A program made the translations under genes and the position numbers. From Eledone cirrhosa (lineage: Eukaryota): DNA of 64,000 bases. This document shows, piece by piece, positions 3,138-63,807 of this stretch. Every line of letters begins with the position of its first letter. Position 1 is the first letter of the stretch. Under the pieces are notes generated by a model. That model was given only the letters and a program-made list of their open reading frames with translations. It searched no databases and was not told where the DNA came from. The stretch spans positions 282,534,001 to 282,598,000 of the forward strand of contig OZ024740.1 in assembly GCA_964016885.1 (NCBI GenBank), read 5' to 3'.

Positions 3138-5125
3138 AATTGCCTCTTGAATTTGTGGTCGAAAGAAAGGTCTCTGTGGGTGGCACAAATTTATGCACCA
3201 AACAGAGAGTTCGAATATACACCTTTCCTTGATGAAGTCCATGCAACGTTAGATGCAGGTAAGACTGAGGTATATGCCCTCATGGGAGACTTCAATGCAC
3301 ATGTTGGCACTGACAACCTGACACAGAAAAGAAAGATTGGAAGGAACGGTAATCCCGATCTAAATGCAAACGGATCTAATGGGCTCTCTATCATAAACAC
3401 TTTCTTCCAGCATAAAAACATTCATAAATGCACATGGCACAAAGGGAATCGGGTACAGAGATCAATAATTGATTTTGTTATTGTTTCTGATATCTTCGAT
3501 TCTGTTCTCGATGTTCGTGTTAAGTGAGTGGTTGAGCTGTCAGCTGATTACCATCTAGTTATTTGCAAACTAAAATACCTAAGGCCAAAGAAGCCCACAA
3601 AACTAGCAGGTTCAGGTCCACCTATAGAATAAAGTAGGAGGCGTTGGTGGATAAGGAAGTCATGATGAGGTATGTATATATTATGCATCCAAATTCAGAG
3701 ATTCTGATTAAACTGAGAACGTTGAAACGGAGTGAAGATTGTTCAGCTCAGTATTTTTCGCTTCAGCCGTTAGATGGTGCGGCTTGTTGTGGATTGTGGC
3801 AAGAGGAGCCCTTGGTTCAATAAAGTACTAAAAAATGCCATACAAACAAAGAAGACGACTTCCAAAGCTTGGCATGCAAATAAGTCCTCCTTCGTGCATT
3901 TGCGGTAACAGCATGTGCAAATAGTCGCAGCAGAGACAATAGAGACGTCCAAAGTTTATACACTGAAGAAATTTGGGGTTAAGATTAAATCCGACTTCAG
4001 ATCAGCAAATAAAGTATTTTTGCAGACCAGCCACAAACTTCTTAGTAAGAAGTCCTCCTCCAGGCCTGCTATTAGGAACGTGTTTGTGGTTCTCCTCTCG
4101 TCGGAGAGATGCGTCCCAGCGAGGTGGAGAGAATACTTTGTTGGACTCCTAACCAGTCACAACAGCAACTTCAGAATGTACACGGAATGCATCTGTGAGC
4201 AATGGCTAATCTCTCGGAGGCTGAGATCACACTAGTAATTAAAGAGTTCAAATGTGGCAAGGCTTCTTCGCATGATGAAATTCTGATCGAGATGTTAAAA
4301 GCCTTAAATTGAGAAGGTATTCAATGGTTGACTCGTTTATACCAGGTCACTTGAATCTCTGGCAAGGCACCTAAGCAATGGTAATCGGGAGTGATGATCT
4401 CAATTTTCAAAAGGACAGAGAAGACAGATTTCTCTAATTATAGAGGGATCTCCTTCTAAAGTCTATCTTAAGTGCTTGGCAAAGAGATGTAGGAATATTG
4501 TCAAGTCTACGCTAGCTGTCGGACAGTATGGTTATCTCCCCGGAGGCAGCACAGGTTACCAAATATCCACACAGCAACAAGTCTTTGAGAAATCGTGAGA
4601 GTATTCTCAAGAGTTGTATGCTTGTTTCGTAGACGTAGAAAACGTATATGACTCCGCTTCATGGGAGCTGCTGAGGGAGATTCTGTCGGAGAATTGGATC
4701 GATGGACAGTTTTTTTTTTGTAGCCTTGATGGTTCTATATGAATGTGGTAGTATTTGTGTTCGGATAAATGGTGCTAAGTGAAAACCATACAATGAGGGC
4801 ATCGGAATCTGTTAAGGTTGCATGCTGTCACCTCTCCTGTTCATTATCTTTATGGACTGTACCCACGTGCAGAGCCGATTTAGAAATGGTATCACGATTA
4901 GCAAATGTAATCGGCTGGAATTTTCGATCGACATCGTAATACTTAACTCGACAGAACGTGATCTCCGACTTGCACTTGATAAATCTGCTCCTGTATACTG
5001 CACAACCGGAATGTAAATCAGTGCTGCGGAGCCTAAAACACTCATTCTCTCAAGGAAGCATGCACAGTGCACTCAACATAAGAGTGGGTCCCACTGAAGC
5101 AGGTGAATAATTTCAAGCAGCTCTT
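2880..5125 (+). mobile_element. Decayed RTE-clade LINE (APE endonuclease + RT), interrupted by (GA)n at ~3056-3136
   Basis: APE motifs IYAP, LMGDFNAHVG, INTFFQHK, SIIDFVIVS; RT motif LSPLLFIIFMD; many stops and frameshifts. Confidence 0.9.
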
Positions 5126-5189
5126 GTCTTGAAGAAGAAGAAGAAGAAGAAGAAGAAGCTAACCAAAAAGAAATTTATATTCATTCGTG

Positions 5190-5700
5190 TTTTTGATTGG
5201 ATACAAAAGACCATATCGTTTTACGGAAATAGCATATATGACATTTGACATTTGCAGCGTTATCTAATTAATATTGCATGAACTTTACAGCAGTCGCCTC
5301 CATTCAAACCAATAGGTCTAGGCCACATGCAATGATTCAAAACTTTACTGAAAGAAGTTTCTCGTTACCGTTTCCCTGACTTTAGAGCGCTTTCATTCAT
5401 CACAGCATATTTACAGCAGTCCATGCAACTATAGTACTTAGATATAGGTGTAATTGGTTGTTGAGTTTAAAATATATTTGGTCATGAAACATCACAACTG
5501 TAGCGACGACATACGAACTACTGAATACATGTCTCAATTCCTGGTCTGCTCTCCACTCGGATATCAACCTCTTCTCTAATATATGCCTGGTATATAATAA
5601 CGTTATTTATTTTTTGACAGGATTCACACCAATGTTTGCGGGGAAAAATATAGTCAACTAAATTCACAGGAGTGTTACTTAAGCACCACAGGATAAAATG
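5190..5700 (-). mobile_element. Highly degraded Penelope-like GIY-YIG endonuclease remnant
   Basis: CESCQ..NVIIYQAYI followed by RRYS..ISKY and KCHICYFRKTI, collinear with the PLE Cys-linker/EN pattern. Confidence 0.4.
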
Positions 5701-7879
5701 CAAAGTTGGAAGATATAGCATGAAACTAAATACTGTAAATCTCTAATCCAATGCCCGTCTATTTATGATATTTTGTTGTCAAAAAGTATATTAAGGCAAA
5801 CTTCTTACTACTACAATTCTATAATTATAACTTTGAAATACAATACAATGCTTCTCTTATAAAATTAATATGTACGTAAATATTTAAATGTTTTAGAGAT
5901 GACATGTTGTGTTCTGTAATAATGGTATGTAGTATGCAAACATATGAATAGAATATTAAATAGATCGCAGTGAAATATTTCCTCTATACAATAAGCTTAA
6001 GATGGTTTCAGTTTTCTGTATATTTACCAATCGAGAAATTGTGTAAATATCAAAGACACGAGAGAAAGTATGAGATAACATTTCAAAAGTCATTTGGTTG
6101 AAAACTAACGTACTGTTAGGATCATATAAATGGAATATTTGTCAAGAAACTCTGATATATTTATGTAGACGTATCATCATTACCATATATACATAAGAGG
6201 TTTTTTTTTTCTCTTTTTGTTAGCTTATATGTTAAAAATGAAACTGGAATGCGATTTTTATTAGCAAAACATTCCAACTAAAAACTATACTTAGCAAATT
6301 TAGTTTTCCTTTTAAATTCATGTTTTTTTTCACTTTAAGATATCATATTTGTCACTTGCAATAAATTCAATTCAAAACCATCGTTTAGAAGTTACATTAA
6401 AATTTGAAATATATGTAATTAAATGGAAATAGCATGCTTTAAGGAACTATATGTTGATAATTATCTAAATACATCTGATCTATTTTGATTTCATACGAGA
6501 AAAAAATTCAAAAGTCTAACACAATTTCTAGTGATTCAGGTCAACAGAAAGAAATACAAAGCTACCAACTATAAGTAGGTCATTTAGGTTTTACTCCAAA
6601 AAGTTATGTCAGTATATCCTATTTCCCACCAAATATGTCCAGACTTTGGACTTAGATAAGCGGAAATGTTACTGGTTACAGTTAATAATTAGTATCATGT
6701 GGGAGTCAAATGCTAAAAAAGAAGTTATATAATAATTTTAAATGGTTATAACATAGCAATACTATACAAAACTTAGTGATATGCTGCCTGTTGATTTTGA
6801 AGCTTATTTCAGTGTGTTGTGTCAGACAAGTGGATCTAAAACCATCTGCCTTATGGAGGAATTTATGAAATACCCAACTAATTTCCTTCCATTGTGGCTG
6901 GCGCGTGTTCAATTTATTTTAAGCAATGATGAAAAAATATGAATCCGAGCTAAGTTGAATTAGTAAATTATTTCCCATCCCTGATCCTGTTAAATACACA
7001 AAATATCCGTGTTACCTGAAAAAGTTAACGTGGTGGTAAATGCGCAAGCATGTACTGTGACGTGTAGGTCTATACGAGACAATCTTCACTTCATAAGCTC
7101 CAACGAAAGGGATAGCGGTTAATCCTAGTTTTCACGAACAATCTTGTTACACGATGCATGCGTTAGGTTACCATGCTGACATGCATTAATATTCTGCCAC
7201 TTTCAAAGATACATAAATTTAAACATGATGTAAATATTTGTGCAATGCCTGACCTGCAGTCCTATCTTAAACGAAAATAGAAAATCATTTTGCATTGAGA
7301 CGCTATTCATTTTTGCTAATCTAAAACAGACGTGTATCTATATAGTAAATTAGGAAGGGAGGGTGGGAAGTATTTAGTCTGCACCATGGAATTTATTAGA
7401 GATGATATATTTAACAATAATAATGCTTGCATTTTAACATAACATGCTTGAAATAAGATCTTTAGTAGTTAGAAATAAATTGCGCTTGCTAATGAATTCA
7501 AAACAACTAATAATATTCGGAGAAAGAAAGCGGGCTGAGATGGTAGAAGAAACATTTAGAGACGTACTATCGAATGTAATTATAGCAAAACAGTCTCTAG
7601 GCAACGTTTTCCACGCTGATCGCAAAGCTGAAATACTTGCACTGAAGTACGAGCGAAATATGATCAAATAATTCTAAGAGAAATATGATCAAATAATTTT
7701 AGTTGTGAATTGTTTTAAGATTTAATCAGTGAAGGAGGACACACCCGTGACTCTTTTTGTGTGCTGTCCAAAACTGATGAAAATGAAATAAAATTCAACC
7801 CCGTTAAAGGTATTGAAAGAGTCATGTGCAATTAAACTGCGTGACAGATTAAGTCCTGCTCCCCAAAACCTGATACAGG

Positions 7880-8045
7880 CCATCCAATAGATTTCCTCAG
7901 ATTTCTTCTACCTAATTTCACTGACAATGCTTGAGTGGACACAGGACTATGGAAGTCAAACCTTGCCCTCACTGAATTGTAGAGGTATCGAACCCGGAAC
8001 CATGTGCTTGCAAAGGTAGGTTCTTCACAACAAAGCCATATCTGT
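7880..8045 (-). mobile_element. Degenerate tRNA-derived SINE
   Basis: B-box-like ggttcgatacc on the minus strand with a tRNA-like head. Confidence 0.45.
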
Positions 8046-8332
8046 GCTTTACATCAGAGATATTTGGCTGCTATTTCTACCAAGCTGCGCTGTCACGTAA
8101 AGTTTCCCTATGGATGTGATTAGATGTGCAAGATATAATTATTCGCTAGCATTTTATTGTTGGAGAGAGCTACCTGTTGGTAACAGTTTACTATCAGTGA
8201 CATCTCTAAACATGGAAGTTTGTTTAAATGTCCAAAGATATACTAAAGTGCTTGGAGTTGCCGTAGGATATTACAAAAAACGCATGCTGACTGTATCAGA
8301 TACTATTTGAAACTATTATTAAACATGAGCTA

Positions 8333-8555
8333 GGCGGTGGATTGGCAGTATCGGTAGAGGGTCGGACGCCATGCTTTGATGCATAGAGTAACGGCCCTTT
8401 ATATTCTGAGTTAAAATCCCGCCGAGGTTAACTTTGCCTTTCGTCCTTATCGGGTCGATAAAATAAAGCACCAGTAATGCAATGGGGGTCGATTTAATAG
8501 ACTTTCCCCTCATCTTCAAATTGTTGGCCTTGTGTCTCAAGTAGAAACAATTATT
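8333..8555 (+). mobile_element. Full-length copy of the dominant tRNA-derived SINE
   Basis: A box tggcagtatcgg, B box gagttaaaatccc, central gcctttc.tcctt..gggtcgataaaataaag domain, tail ggccttgtg..gtagaaacaatt; more than 20 copies in the window. Confidence 0.9.
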
Positions 8556-10732
8556 TACAGATACACGAAGAGCCAGGGAATCCGCTTTGTCTTCTCTTTC
8601 TCAGAAGTTATAAGTGAGTATTCCTCCCCGCCCCCAAGCTAAAAGTACTATCACGTTATCCTGTTGCAATGGGGACCTAGTAGAAAACAAAAGGCAAATC
8701 CTATCAAAAATATGTAAAATACAAGAAGAGAACGACAATGACGACGACAACATGGAAATCACAATATTTTGTAAAAGCATCTCCTTCTCGAAAAACATAA
8801 TACCGAACTACTAATTAACAGACAAAGTAGGGCTGAAATACATGAGACACAAGCGATAGAACTTTGGCGAAAATAATACCAAAATATTATTGCATGCTGA
8901 AGTAAAAATACTTGTGGGATGGGAGATGTTTGCTTATTTATATATTTTGTTTCGTCTCACACTAAGGATGTTAATGGGCGTTTTTGCCTACACCAGATTC
9001 CATTATGAATAGTGGCAGGTGAACAGAGGCGTATTGTGCTCTAACATAACCTGGTTATTCACTCACTCGTGTTGGCTGAGTACTCGAAATGTCTCCTTTA
9101 TGTACATTTTTAAAATAGCATTTTCGTTTATATATTAATATAAATAAATTTGTTTGCTTTATGCAAATTTCTACCATATTTCTTTGTATACCGTCTCTCA
9201 GTCATTCTCCCTCTCGCTGCTGTACAACTTCGTCTTGATCACCCCCGCAAGGTTTTGTAATCCCAGCACGTTTTAACGTTCTATGTGTTATATATATGAA
9301 TGTATTGAGAGCAACCTTAATCAATAACATACAAAAAACTTCGTGCTAGTAAGAAGGACCAACAAAAAATTGATGGTCCTCATAGCATGAAGTGAAGAGA
9401 TCGAAAACGAAAGTTAAATTTTTGGCACCAGCACATTTAAAGTGCCTGAATCTCTCATGGTGGTACAGATGTCGCTGGTTGCCTAAAAAGGCATTAGGGA
9501 GAGCTTTCCATATGACATGGTGATCCTTCACCTTAGAGTCACTGTTAGGTTTTTGAAGGGGTTCCCAAAAGAAACCGCACCAAATATGGAAAGCCAACCA
9601 CCCGATCTCCAATAGCACCAAGCTAACATATATTCGTGAATGGTGAATAGATGTGGTTGTCTTTTATTAGGCACGTCTAACCATAGCTTGTCTCTTTGGC
9701 GGTGCTGCAGTCTTAGGTCAAGAGAAGACTAATACTGGGGGCTTGTCATCTGGAATGGTATCAGGCGCTCCCAGCCGTCTACCAAGCGGGCAATGCGATC
9801 AGTGGAAAATCCACGCCAACGTTCTGTAGTGGATTGTGGTGAGCATATGAATCGACGACGTTCTTGGTAGAACAGTAAGCGTTGATGAGAACGAACTTAC
9901 AAGTCTGCTCGGGAGTAATTTCTGTCCAGGGATTATGGACAATTTCCAGATATCATTGGCCCGGCAGTTCTACCAGGGGGCACTGACGGTTCGAGACACA
10001 CTCTACAGGCAAGGATCTGTCCGAGATGCATGTACAACGATGAAACCGTTCTGCACTCACTCGTTCAGTATCCGAGCATTGTTGACTTGAGGAGTTTTGA
10101 CGAACAGTTAATATTATGTATGAGACAGCCACCATGTTTTGGCCGGGAAAGACTGTTAGTTTTCCTTTGGTGGTGGCTGTAGCGCAAGATGTTGTGTGGC
10201 GGATGCTATGAAATACTGAAGATATACTCTTTCCTCTTCGGCCAAGCCCTCGTCGACTTTCTCTACATCCACTTCTAAAGAAAAGTGAGTATCAAGAGGA
10301 AAGCGCTGCCCCCCCCCCCCCCCAGTACAACAGCGAGGATGGCCTGAGTGAATGGCCTACTCTAATCAAGTACTTGTAGGCTGGGGTTTCAGATAGGAGA
10401 AGGAAACTGAAACTTTCCTACGGTTTTCTTGGCAATCAAGATTTTCCTAAATTATATCTGGGTGGTGCGCCCCTTTTCGCAGAATTCTGTTCCAACTTTC
10501 TTACAAGTTTCGTGTCTGTTTACTTGTATCAATATAAATCCCCACTGTCCCTATTCATTTTTATTGCCCATTTAGTTTCGGCCCTAGTGGTCAATAGATA
10601 AATAATTATCATTATTGTTGTTACCAGTTGTACAAATACGTTTGATGGAATAGTATGAGAGACTTCAAAAAGCGGTTGTTTAGTTAAAAAGATTTGATTT
10701 GAGAGAACCTGGGTTACGTCATTCACAAACAC

Positions 10733-14450: not shown

Positions 14451-15089
14451 CCCTACGACATAAATATATAATTAACATATAAGAGACACAGCATGGATGT
14501 TTAAGCTGTGATCATGTGACTGCTAGTTCAGTAGTAAATACCAAGTGAGTAAATGTCACTGATGACGGATAAAACGTTGTGAAACTCAATTGTCTGGTGC
14601 GGCCACATTGCTACTAAGGTAGCTGTGATGTTATTTCTCAGCTTAAAACACTCAGTGTGTGACATATATATGTCTATCCTACATAAACATGCCGAATATA
14701 TTTCCATAAAAACCTTTATTATGAACCACACAAATATATATATATATATATATATTAGCTTCAGCTAATATATATATGTATATACATAGTAGTAATAATA
14801 AATTTGAAGACTAAAATCCAAAGAGGGCTCGATAAGGATAAATATATATCAAATATATAAGAACCGTAGAACAAATATTTATTAAAATAACAGATTAAAG
14901 TTTAAGCAAAGAATCATCTGAAACAGTTTAATAAATATGTATATACATATATATATATATATATATGTGTGGAGGGAGGGGGGTGAATATGTATGTATAT
15001 ATTGGCTACTCATATGTTTGTTGTATATAAACGTAAAATATATATAAATACAAGATTTCATATACGCCTCTATTACCTATATATCTAAA

Positions 15090-28249: not shown

Positions 28250-29054
28250 TTCAGTCCGGGTTAAACTTCTAATTATTATTTGTCCTTTCTGTTACGCAAC
28301 AGAAACGTCATATACCTACATATGTTTTGACCTCCTACTGTTAATTCGGTTGAGGGGATATAACTTCAGCCTCATAGATGACTGCGTGTGTTACACTGTT
28401 TTTGAAGAGGGTATAATTCTGGCGTTCTGCAAGAACATCTGGGTAGGATTGGTGGTTATAGGGGCTTTCATAATTTTAGCACAGGAATATCTGAGTTTCA
28501 TCCTGTGTCTATTAAAGATATGTAAGTATTTATGTCCTATAGAGAAATGCTTGCCGAGGAGTGTCAAGAATTTCCTACCTACATTAGTTCTTACTTCAAG
28601 CGAGAAGAATGAACTATACCAAATTATTTTTTTATTTCTATTTTTCTTTCTACTGGTTGTGGGATTAGAAGGGGAGTAAAAAATTTAATAGGAGAAGCCA
28701 TTGTTGGCTAACGTGCCATTCTTTCAAAGATGGCCTTGTTAGAACAAAGATTAGAAATGCTAGTGCTGATGTTTTTAACGAAGTTTTGAAAGACCGTAGG
28801 TGGGGGACATAAGACCTTGTGTATACAAGTTAACTTTTTATTAAGTTTGTGGGAAGGTCTGAATGTGTCTGTGCGAAGGTCTAGGTTGATGTCTAAATAA
28901 TTTACGCTAGTCAGATTGGTGGCTAACTCATTGAGCGAATCAATCAGGTTTTTCCTAAATCGGTCAAGGTCGTGACCGATTTTATGACTCGATTGGATAA
29001 GACCGTTGTCGCAGTAGAAACCAGTGTGGAAATTTGAGAATGTGACTAGTAACG

Positions 29055-29111
<57 letters not shown>

Positions 29112-29310
29112 CTAACTAAATCGCATACACCAGCACTATCGAATGATCCCATTGAGACATCGAATAATTCTGATGTAATTGATGTTTTTTTACCCAGGCT
29201 ACATCATCATTGAAGTGGATGGTTTTCTGCAGTGCGTAAGAATATGTGGTGAACTCTAACGCTTTATCCAACAGAGTCACCGCGATGGACAGGTAGAAGG
29301 CCACGGTCTT
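28250..29310 (-). mobile_element. Decayed Penelope-like element RT and Cys-linker, split by (TA)n at ~29058-29108
   Basis: AFYLSI..LLDKALEF..WVKK, FDVSMGSFDSAGVCDLV, GFYCDNGL (degenerate GLYRDDGL), VNYLDINLDL, CSCK..YPLQKQC. Confidence 0.85.
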
Positions 29311-29384
29311 TAGTTAGAAATATGCTGGTGTTCCTAATTCAATTCAATTTTCAAATTCCATCGTTTTCTAATCACATGATGTTT

Positions 29385-58421: not shown

Positions 58422-58872
58422 TTAAGAAGAGCAGAACAAACAAACATTAAACAATTCTTTTAAGAATTTAAAAAAATGATTTAAATATCTACCCGTTCAT
58501 AATGCTATTACCGGGGGTTTCGCTTTACAAAAAGTTAGAGATTCGGAGAATTCGTTGCTACTTACTGCTATTTTCTTTAGCAGAATAGCCATCAACGAGT
58601 CTGTAATATTTCCCGCTTTTTCTAGTGGTCTGTTCATGTGTGGGTCATTCTAACGGCCTTACTTACACTAGCTGGTAGTTGCCAATATATTTGCAGACTG
58701 TGGGACTAGTTTCCTACTGTATGGAAATAGCTATCTGATGAACTTTACTTTTCCGTTAGAAATTCTCCGAATCTCTAACCTTTTGTAAAGCGAAACCCCC
58801 GGGTAGATATTTAAATCATTTTTTTAATTTTTAAAAGAATTATTTAATGTTTGTTTGTTCTGCTCTTCTTAA
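58422..58872. mobile_element. Fold-back element with ~115-bp arms and a long-stem-II HHR at 58732-58809 (+)
   Basis: CUGAUGA-acuuuac..guuaga..ucuaac..guaaagc-GAAAC-ccccgg-GUA; stem I register is off by one base. Confidence 0.7.
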
Positions 58873-59614: not shown

Positions 59615-59664
<50 letters not shown>

Positions 59665-59806
59665 TCAGGTTAGTAGGAGTTAGGTATTATATACCCGTGT
59701 CCCATTAAGGTATTGGCAGCATAATAATTAGCTCTATGCTTTGGAGCAGAGCCGTATATATGAAAAAGAACACAAGAGCGTCTACAACATCAAAAGGTTT
59801 TTATTG

Positions 59807-59853
59807 GCTAACAATGTTTCTTCCTTACGTGTAACCGTAGGATTCATCAGAGC
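59807..59853 (-). ncRNA. Type I hammerhead ribozyme (left arm)
   Basis: Reverse complement of 62342-62388. Confidence 0.8.
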
Positions 59854-62341
59854 TACAAAAGGGGCCCGACTGGTGTTATGGACTCTACCAACCAAACACC
59901 CAAGAACAAAGAGTAAAGAGGGTAAAGAGCAAAAGTAGGGGACGATAAGTCTAATTTTGGTGCGGGAGGGTGGGGTGTTGGTCCTTGTTTACTAGCTGCG
60001 GTCATATTCATTCCCGGGGGTCGGGTGGTTAGCTGAACCATAGATGGGGTGGCGTGGATAGTATGGTGCAGAGGGTGCGCAGAGGCTACACAAACACAAA
60101 GGGCGTAGAATACATATATACATATAGCGGAGGAGGTACATGAGGTAATTAGAAATGGAAAAAGAGTAATAATAATAATCAATAATTAATAGTGTATAAT
60201 AAGGCATGGGGAAGATTACACTATAATAAGGTATAAAGGTAAGAATAAGGTAAAATATAAAGGAGGATAAAAGTGGAAATAATAATAAAGATAAAAAATA
60301 TATAGAGAATATATAAGGAAATATAAGCGAATATTTGGAGGGGAAAACACAATGTAAAAAAACCGATTTTTTTCATACAATAATAAAAAAAAAATAATTA
60401 TGGGGGGGGGGGGGGGGGGGGCAGGACAGAGAAATATGATCAAGTGTGATTCGTTGAGAGAATATAGGATGATAACAGTCGTGTCCAGTTTATACATCTT
60501 AATAATAAATAATAAACAATATGTGTATCAGAGTTGCAGAACCTTCAATTCACTTACGGGTTCAAGCCACGTGGCATGGTCCATTGTTTATCTGTGCGGT
60601 CATGTGCGTTTGTTTTTGACACCACAGCAGATGCACAAGTTTGTAAATTCCAATGCAGATAGAAGTCAATTTTTGCTCACCCGGACATTGACCGAGGATC
60701 CAATATTCCTAGTTCAAAATGTGTTTGGTGTTATTTTGTTTGCACAAATCAATCAATTGGTTCAATATATGGAGTATGGTTTCCTGGTCTTCATGACAGT
60801 GTCAGTGGTTGTATATTTGGAAGTCACAAGGATTACAGTACTCCGGTTTGGTGTGATACCCAAACGTTGAACTTTGGTGTCGATAGGACATCAACGAAGC
60901 AGGGTGATATCGCAATGTGGTACAAAACGGTGCGGAAGGAAAATCTTCGTCTTCGTTTCATCCGGGTCCAGTAGTCACGTGCAAGAACCGCTACGTAGTA
61001 ATTGTGGGGTTAATCAGTCAAGTCAGCAACTGACCGAAAATTCAGGCAGGCATAACAGCTTTTTTATGTGTGTACGTGTGTCCGACACACACAGACACAT
61101 ATCTATATGTATTTCAACCCAAAAAACCCAAATGATTCACCCAGTGGTACTACAATCGGTCAAGACCGTAACTGGCCGACAGTTCCCTTAGGGATTCAGA
61201 CAGGCATGACAGGTATATTTAGGTCAAGAGCCTCCTTATGTGTTCGTGTGTTCGATACACACAGACACATATCCACATGTATTTCAACTCAAAAAATTTC
61301 AGTTGATTCCCCCATTGATATCATATCTGTGCTGTTTGGATATGCATGCTGTGGTGTTCTGGTCGTGCATATCATTCACTGTATTTTGCCACTACATTGG
61401 AATGTGATGTTATGGTATAACATCACATTCCAAATTTTGAACCAATTGATTGATTTGTGCAAACAAAATAACACCAAACACATTTTGAACTAGGAATATT
61501 GGATCCTCGGTCAATGTCCGGGTGAGCAAAAATAGAGTTCTATCTGCATTGGAATTTACGAACTTGTGCATCTGCTGTGGTGTCAAAAACAAACGCACAT
61601 GACCGCACAGATAAACAATGGACCATGCCACGTGGCTTGAACCCGTAAGTGAATTGAAGGTTCTGCAACTCTGATATACATATTGTTTATTATTTATTAT
61701 TAAGATGTATAAACTGGACACGACTGTTATCATCCTATATTCTCTCAACGAATCACACTTGATCATATTTCTCTGTCCTGTCCCCCCCCCCCCATAATTA
61801 TTTTTTTTTTATTATTGTTTGAAAAAAATCGGTTTTTTTACATTGTGTTTTCCCCTCCAAATATTCGCTTATATTTCCTTATATATTCTCTATATATTTT
61901 TTATCTTTATTATTATTTCCACTTTTATCCTCCTTTATATTTTACCTTATTCTTACCTTTATACCTTATTATAGTGTAATCTTCCCCATGCCTTATTATA
62001 CACTATTAATTATTGATTATTATTATTACTCTTTTTCCATTTCTAATTACCTCATGTACCTCCTCCGCTATATGTATATATGTATTCTACGCCCTTTGTG
62101 TTTGTGTAGCCTCTGCGCACCCTCTGCACCATACTATCCACGCCACCCCATCTATGGTTCAGCTAACCACCCGACCCCCGGGAATGAATATGACCGCAGC
62201 TAGTAAACAAGGACCAACACCCCACCCTCCCGCACCAAAATTAGACTTATCGTCCCCTACTTTTGCTCTTTACCCTCTTTACTCTTTGTTCTTGGGTGTT
62301 TGGTTGGTAGAGTCCATAACACCAGTCGGGCCCCTTTTGTA

Positions 62342-62388
62342 GCTCTGATGAATCCTACGGTTACACGTAAGGAAGAAACATTGTTAGC
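62342..62388 (+). ncRNA. Type I hammerhead ribozyme (right arm)
   Basis: gcu-CUGAUGA-auccuacg(guuaca)cguaaggaa-GAAAC-auu-GUU-agc, then AATAAA. Confidence 0.8.
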
Positions 62389-62429
62389 CAATAAAAACCT
62401 TTTGATGTTGTAGACGCTCTTGTGTTCTT

Positions 62430-62471
<42 letters not shown>

Positions 62472-62474
62472 ACA

Positions 62475-62676
62475 ATAATAAATTTGAAGACTAAAATCCA
62501 AAGAGGGCTCGATAAGGATAAATATATATCAACTATATAAGAACCGTAGAGCAAATATTTATTAAAGTAACAGATTAAAGTTTAAGCAAAGAATCGCTGC
62601 TTTCACCCTTAACCCAGAAGATCCCGTTAAGTGTGAGAGCATCGATTCTTTGCTTAAACTTTAATCTCTTATTTTA

Positions 62677-62685
<9 letters not shown>
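62475..62685. mobile_element. TA-associated fold-back repeat family (also ~14795-14935, ~32415-32595, ~39980-40112)
   Basis: Shared aatttgaagactaaaatcc..taacagattaaagtttaag; ~58-bp inverted arms here. Confidence 0.8.
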
Positions 62686-62829: not shown

Positions 62830-63807
62830 CTGTGCGAAATTCCTTCCTTGCTCACATTTCAACCAGGTTTGATGGTCTTTATTCTCTCTCGTTCACGATT
62901 TCAGCGAATTTAAATTCATAGAAATTTGGGACTTGACTCCTTCTTCCTCATTTTTCGTTGCTTCACCATTTTTGTTTGTTTACACTCGTGTCCCCTTTAT
63001 TTACGTGTCCCAACGACTTTTTTTAGCCGTTGCTCGCACCAACCGGAGGTATATGGTCTTTAAAGCGATGAAATACCAATGATGGTTGGAAGATCACTGA
63101 TGAAGGACTAACTTTATTCATATGTAACCCATTAGCAACCCCGCAGCACGTTTATTTCATATTTACACATATTTTTTCCCCTGCTGTTACCCGTCTATTT
63201 CGTTCTTACTGCTTCCTCTTTCTCCGTATCTTTACCCTCTCTAGCAGTCACTCTCTCTGTTAGCCTCTTCCTCACCCTTCACTCACTCATTCTCCGTTAC
63301 TACCTCTCCTCCTCCTTCTTCCCGTTTGACCTGTGCGTAATTCTTTTCTTTCGCACGCTTGGCCAGGCCGGTCGGCATTTTTTCTCTCTCTCGTCTACGA
63401 TTTCACAGAACTTATGTTTACCGAATTCACAGACTACACCCCTTCTTCCTCCCGTTAGACCTGTGCGAAATTCCTTCCTTTCTCACATTTCAACCAGGTT
63501 TGATGGTCTTTATTCTCTCTCGTTCACGATTTCACCGAATTTAAATTCATAAAAATTTGGGACTTGACTCCTTCTTCCTCACTTTTCGTTGCTTCACCAT
63601 CTTTGTTTGTTTACACTCGTGTCCCCTTTATTTACGTGTCCCAACGACTTTTTTTAGCCGTTGCTCGCACCAACCGGAGGTATATGGTCTTTAAAGCGAT
63701 GAAATACCGATGATGGTTGGAAGATCACTGATGAAGGACTAACTTTATTCATATGTAACCCATTAGCAACCCCGCAGCACGTTTATTTCATATTTACACA
63801 TATTTTT
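62830..63807. repeat. Partial tandem duplication: ~345-bp direct repeats, period ~631
   Basis: 62830-63176 matches 63461-63807; TA-flanked; related fragment at ~52700-52790 (-). Confidence 0.9.

Follow-up and report, generated by a model that had tools for sequence, protein, structure and literature searches.

The palindrome studied here lies in a window of 64,000 nt (the whole stretch of Eledone cirrhosa DNA that was analyzed) and consists, with a probability that we put at about 0.95, of two 5'-truncated copies of a single Penelope-like element (PLE), 1.66 kb on the minus strand and 1.0 kb on the plus strand, in head-to-head orientation within a (TA)n tract. Its parts are:

59618 to 59663: (TA)n target remnant, left
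59664 to 59754, minus strand: tail of the PLE (91 nt), absent from the right arm
59755 to 61416, minus strand: left copy, the 5'-truncated 3' UTR/pLTR of a putative Hydra-clade PLE, ending in ATATATA (equals 7224-8944 of the full copy L047)
61069 to 61320: degenerate internal duplication of ~170 nt, belonging to the family's UTR
61397 to 61433: junction fold-back with a stem of 17 nt and a loop of 3 nt
61429 to 62433, plus strand: right copy, 5'-truncated 3' UTR/pLTR without tail (equals L047 7931-8937)
62434 to 62468: (TA)n target remnant, right

An earlier note on this DNA had described a ~2.7-kb palindrome with near-identical inverted arms of ~1 kb, and this was borne out by alignment of the arms (59755-60773 and 61429-62440), which showed 98.5% identity with eight mismatches and one 7-nt homopolymer gap. 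The 640-nt "spacer" contains no foreign loop; there the left copy simply extends farther upstream, since it is colinear with other copies along the minus strand between 61416 and 59755. At the junction, positions 61417-61433 duplicate the 5'-most bases of the left copy. Apart from the tail, the palindrome is entirely 3' UTR and encodes nothing. Both arms had been said to run outward into a TA repeat; the right arm does so at once, but the left arm first passes through a 91-nt, element-derived tail (59754-59664). The outer flanks of the two arms are unrelated to each other.

Several other elements were observed in the window. An inverted-repeat element of ~340 nt (58465-58830) lies to the left of the palindrome. 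A distinct repeat of ~210 nt occupies 62469-62680, includes a hairpin of 86 nt (62577-62662), and stands beside (TA)n at several loci; this ~210-nt repeat is also found at 14794, 32416, and 39982, and likewise 3' of the PLE end in L003. A direct repeat (62830-63176 and 63461-63807; 98% identical, 631 nt apart) carries a CTGATGA motif and has matches of 75-86% at other loci. A decayed PLE RT (28469-29355, minus strand) and a Tx1-type LINE RT/C-terminus fragment (9639-10356, plus strand) were also seen.

A search of the 3.0-Gb genome with the right arm, in which 40 of 1,441 candidates were scored, yielded at least 47 matches, and a 34-nt pattern put the number of 3' ends of the PLE family at ~1,060 (1,059). 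AT repeats follow all 30 family ends listed, indicating a preference for (TA)n. Longer copies of the arm, followed through the genome as the earlier note had suggested, extend into an ORF with PLE RT and GIY-YIG. Its linking of the hammerhead and pLTR-type end to PLEs was right, and its alternative, acquisition of a hammerhead by a LINE family, is refuted, as these copies do not run into APE-RT. The full copy, L047, is arranged as a 5' pLTR (3601-3857), the 91-nt tail (to 3951), a 5' UTR, an open ORF of 845 aa (4029-6563), a 2.4-kb 3' UTR (to 8944) with its hammerhead, the tail again, and (TA)n. The same layout was found in L038, L082, L090, and L096. In full tandem copies, the tail lies between the 5' pLTR and the 5' UTR. 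Tandem units are spaced 4,958-5,087 nt apart, longer than the "generally <3 kb" of the Hydra clade.

The parent ORF is single, with RT followed by a C-terminal GIY-YIG, and its protein (P0003) has YRDD and YIG motifs. Pfam matched neither RT nor GIY-YIG in P0003, and a PDB sequence search with the ORF returned no match. P0003 has 957 relatives at E<=0.001, and PF01541 was found in 2 of the 120 listed. As set out in section 11 of PMC8557442, Hydra-clade diagnostics are RWK-type, DKT, CxCx5C, and CxxC/CxH motifs and a C-terminal EN; a length generally <3 kb describes the clade without being diagnostic of it. P0003 has RWR at 38, DKT at 121, CxCx5C at 704, CxxC at 802, and CxH at 830; the Hydra-type motifs CxCx5C, CxxC, and CxH around E/N are all found, and each Hydra motif tested is present in 111 to 115 of the 120 listed relatives. 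The EN+ PLE traits of pLTR tandems, inverted 5'-truncated copies, a one-ended tail, and a hammerhead motif in the pLTR are present as well. The motifs fit the Hydra clade, an assignment made from them and from comparison by eye with the published alignment; the absence of CCHH was likewise judged by eye. On these sequence grounds, we place the family in the Hydra clade of PLEs as a probable new member, one with a long UTR. Neptune, our first assumption for the element's identity, was dropped on the motifs, which indicate Hydra. Among side observations, the ORF L047:4029-6563 (G000:C4, 235.265 Mb) has a region rich in Asn/Thr that separates RT from nuclease, and it lies in a pLTR-ORF-pLTR tandem; a different PLE ORF (L047:1-2349) is found just upstream of it. 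Further divergent Hydra-type families (L089:1181-2888 and L092:2287-4425), with 30-48% identity to P0003, occur beside family copies.

Both arms end in hammerhead-like motifs, located with our own descriptor scan:

59799 to 59860, minus strand: hammerhead-like motif with AATAAA, left arm (core at -59850, AATAAA at 59805-59800)
62335 to 62396, plus strand: minimal type I hammerhead-like motif with AATAAA, right arm

The descriptor was matched at +62345 and -59850 by CUGAUGA, stem II, GAAA, a one-pair stem III, and a GUU site. In the right arm, the core (62345-62351) and stem II are followed by GAAA (62375-62378) and AATAAA (62390-62395), with the predicted cut after GUU 62385. A hammerhead and AATAAA had been claimed for each arm; by the descriptor the motifs are present at both, but Rfam detected no hammerhead, either at its gathering cut-off or at E<=10. 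Minimum free energy folding without constraints gave z=+1.2, as expected for a minimal motif and of no support in itself. In the descriptor scan, the core, stems I and II, and the NUH site were kept across subfamilies while the free position varied. Judged from the sequence, the GUU site (GUA in older copies) and a basal A-A mismatch in stem II may reduce any self-cleavage. Minimal hammerheads of this type cleave as dimers. A short 3' end of a related PLE family at -15737 in the window has a canonical G-C in stem II, a GUA site, and AATAAA, then (TA)n; the layout is the same, and its stems are changed yet still paired. Another hammerhead family, with a palindromic CTAG loop, is present at +32015, -31858, and +50800, the first two forming an outward-facing pair ~160 nt apart.

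The head-to-head arrangement is common in the family. It was found at 13 of the 38 loci from the right-arm search (with 1.5-kb flanks, in which partners may be missed), and the first 100 listed of the 1,059 3' ends contained 10 head-to-head pairs within 7 kb vs. a single tail-to-tail pair. The tail was on exactly one arm in 16 of the 17 pairs examined first, the window's included (P = 1.4e-4 even under the most favorable independent rate). Another 12 pairs, for which strand and distance were the sole selection criteria, showed this pattern in 11 cases. The total is 27/29, with no tail-free pair; the two exceptions (L090 and L114) both contain a tandem pLTR. Only 3 of 23 solo copies have the tail. 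Given this one-tail pattern, the arms appear to have been made together in a single coordinated insertion, and the palindrome is likely the product of one such event. Inverted PLE insertions with a one-sided tail are already known, and this locus is an ordinary example.

By analogy with another PLE, both strands were probably primed, from two starts. The element's GIY-YIG nuclease would nick both strands of the (TA)n target, and RT would extend both target ends on sense RNA, one start site being at the far end of the tail and the other at ATATATA on the border of body and tail. Both cDNAs would terminate prematurely, still within the 2.4-kb UTR, and would then be joined at their 3' ends via snap-back and microhomology. 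This route is favored because either arm can be the longer, the tail-less one being so in about half of the pairs, and because at two loci (L005 and L033) the inverted arm is the tail alone. Counting against it here are its being borrowed from another PLE clade, the absence of any common rare change between the arms of some pairs (L040 and L042), the two exceptions to the one-tail rule, and the 17-nt fold-back, which would be explained most simply as snap-back copying.

Because of this fold-back (61397-61433), copying of the second arm from the first cDNA, after snap-back of the tail-bearing cDNA, stays alive for the window locus, unlikely as we consider it. The cDNA would have folded at 61416, with 17 nt copied, a jump of ~640 nt, and copying on to ATATATA, where it would have ended by annealing to the other target end or by nuclease trimming. 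The plus strand reads continuously through the fold-back, comparable fold-backs occur in L039, L040, and L112, and self-priming has been inferred from junction palindromes in PMC3846280. In addition, the window's arms share 17 rare changes vs. 4 that are arm-specific, unrelated copies sharing 0.09 on average, a result that equally favors a single event with two starts. To account for the pairs, about half, in which the tail-less arm is the longer, and for the tail-only arms of L005 and L033, such copying would require an extra trimming step. We regard two independent insertions into one (TA)n tract, with later homogenization of the arms by gene conversion, as most improbable. The genome's (TA)n tracts do gather many insertions, and AT>GC makes up 14 of the 17 shared changes, in line with GC-biased conversion; however, there is no (TA)n between the arms, head-to-head pairs outnumber tail-to-tail pairs 10 to 1 among those first 100 ends, and the one-tail rule largely refutes the idea. 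Conversion after insertion could be enough for the shared changes alone. That the palindrome is a fold-back artifact of assembly or library is scarcely credible, because the arms differ at eight positions and in the tail and their outer flanks are unrelated; moreover, the head-to-head layout recurs with other breakpoints at 28 other loci. In favor of an artifact is that no junction-spanning sequence was found in the four contig sets that contain the family (from at most two samples of one study). No RNA run carrying the sequence was found among the sequencing runs listed.

The 17 rare changes common to the arms of the window, comprising 7 A>G, 7 T>C, and 3 others, include two private clusters:

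62325 to 62339, plus strand: five A>G changes (62325, 62328-62330, and 62339), mirrored at 59870, 59867-59865, and 59856, in predicted stems
61781 to 61793, plus strand: T>C changes producing a C run, mirrored as a G run at 60402-60421

The five A>G changes fall within 15 nt beside the hammerhead, and all five affect A-U pairs of the predicted fold; by predicted pairing stability, four of the sites rank in the top 2% of all A's in the arm, and the fifth is only moderately paired. The five-G form occurs at the window locus only, while the unchanged 43-mer has 194 exact matches. In 28 other copies, 18 of the 218 changes are A>G, vs. 7/17 here (P = 2.4e-4, with clustering ignored and the pattern noticed post hoc). 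It is possible, though less likely than not, that the locus is a fossil of ADAR-edited PLE RNA, in which case A>G in both arms would show that one sense RNA molecule served as template for both. The T>C cluster could have arisen if the cDNA strand of the hybrid was edited; ADAR activity on DNA in hybrids is reported (PMC5389660). Arguing against simple editing are the equal number of T>C changes, five of which lie in one tract that is altered in no other copy, and the lack of a family-wide excess: no surplus of A>G was seen in hammerhead stems (1,059 matches with A/G allowed vs. 1,064 with T/C allowed; variants in 0/100 and 3/100 of the matches listed, respectively). Three or more A>G within 20 nt were seen in no aligned copy kept besides the window's, the short-arm rows that aligned unrelated sequence (L109_A, L110, L111_B, L112_B, L113_A, and L114-L118) having been dropped by eye. 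The shared changes could also come from conversion between the arms or from a lost source copy. In the literature outside subscription journals, we found no report of such footprints in PLE copies.

The segment that had suggested a LINE is the following:

60763 to 60837, minus strand: zinc-finger look-alike (CxxC followed by a stop and ETILH), in non-coding UTR

The earlier note read here the C-terminal zinc-binding motif of L1/Tx1, a reading that is unsupported. All the peptides that it quoted occur in the sequence, but CPIDTKVQRLGITPNR lies in another frame from HCHEDQETILH and has one Cys, and its second half is owed solely to a 47-nt deletion of the palindrome's subfamily. On the plus strand, HIIHC..W at 61368 does read on into ILNQ..., but it is the antisense of the left copy and is joined to ILNQ... 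only by the insertion junction. No zf-RVT similarity was found in 11 translations of the segment and its surroundings, whereas a true Tx1 piece of this genome used as control gave E=2.4e-10. Of the relatives of this genome's Tx1 protein, the single one with a species name is from Argonauta, in keeping with a cephalopod host. A zf-RVT LINE profile of this genome (30 genomic loci and 4 proteins, mostly of one LINE family, with 150 of 44,775 candidates scored) gave E=0.79 against the window and 1.7 against reversed sequences. Searching 1.84 billion representative proteins with phmmer returned no match to the segment at E<=0.001. With the UTR peptide, a word-index search gave 14 candidates, none of them scored (weak evidence), and a PDB sequence search gave no match, the true Tx1 control being likewise unmatched. 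A codon-position test for past coding in the UTR showed no signal, as did its ORF control. All 20 loci from the peptide search, picked for divergence or pairing, align to the PLE UTR well beyond the segment.

Variation within the family points to the origin of the motif. Among 56 matches (some loci counted twice), 15 had K with an extra A, 12 had K without it, and 29 had E. The extra A shifts the frame, and older subfamilies read KTILH and then a frameshift. When 48 flanking sequences were placed in a midpoint-rooted tree, the E copies fell into a single group nested within the K copies (rough supports of 90/78), and only this young group has both E and the frame-restoring deletion. The motif sits in a short repeat present four times in the UTR, and the upstream repeat copy keeps the older state. 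Sequence comparison indicates that ETxxH is not ancestral but arose in the youngest subfamily through two recent mutations, and the zinc-finger look-alike is a chance occurrence in non-coding UTR. It is very unlikely that the C-terminus of an L1/Tx1 ORF2 was captured within the PLE UTR, one of the origins envisaged in the earlier note. The young subfamily has CxxC, ETILH, and a later ILG...LLW in one frame, the UTR exceeds the length usual in the clade, and rotifer PLEs are described as capturing host DNA between ORF and pLTR (PMC3846280); nevertheless, no profile, protein, or sequence search gave a significant match, and the E copies are nested inside the K copies. A very old, decayed LINE capture in the UTR is conceivable at most.

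As found, the locus matters little, being a known PLE insertion pattern in a long-UTR family of a known clade. The family has value as material: with its ~1,060 ends, its numerous head-to-head pairs that follow the one-tail pattern strictly, and an open full-length ORF in one copy or more, it permits a genome-wide test of how PLE inverted repeats originate, a question called open in PMC8557442 and PMC3846280. Should editing prove to be the source of the A>G cluster, the cluster would directly mark the template strand and bear on the open question of a sense vs. an antisense template; together with the 27/29 one-tail rule, it would constitute in vivo evidence for two-site, both-strand priming.

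With the zf-RVT (PF13966) of L1/Tx1 ORF2, the palindrome has in common only a six-residue look-alike (ETILH), and this in the young subfamily alone; the Cys/His spacing is wrong, stops are shared, the motif is derived, there is no profile match, and the longer copies have neither APE nor LINE RT upstream. The Hydra clade, as described in PMC8557442, shares with this family a single ORF of RT and C-terminal GIY-YIG, the clade motifs, the hammerhead, and the (TA)n target. However, its members are generally <3 kb, whereas the unit here is about 5.0-5.1 kb with a 3' UTR of 2.4 kb; the ORF of 845 aa compares with 677-815 aa in 118 of the 120 listed relatives, and the family, in contrast to the clade, has clear pLTR tandems. 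The supplement of PMC8557442 includes one octopus family, the 2,507-bp Hydra-1_Obim, whose protein, compared by eye, is related but represents a distinct family. A Poseidon PLE is reported to cleave and extend both strands in vitro, its RT starting at two sites that bracket the tail (PMC11167929). Poseidon_Ac resembles the present family in its AT-rich target and in two 3' end positions bracketing the tail; it belongs to another clade, and its hammerhead overlaps the ORF start, whereas here the ATG lies ~170 nt past the hammerhead. Finally, inverted pLTR insertions with a one-sided tail and junction palindromes occur in Penelope and other EN+ PLEs (PMC8557442, legend of Fig. 2; PMC3846280). 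Those insertions, as there described, and the pairs reported here have in common an inverted 5'-truncated copy at the 5' end, a tail at one end only, and a small palindrome at the junction. They differ in the length of the tail, which is 91 nt here and 30-40 nt in the EN+ PLE insertions described in these papers, and in that the one-tail pattern is given here as a count of pairs.
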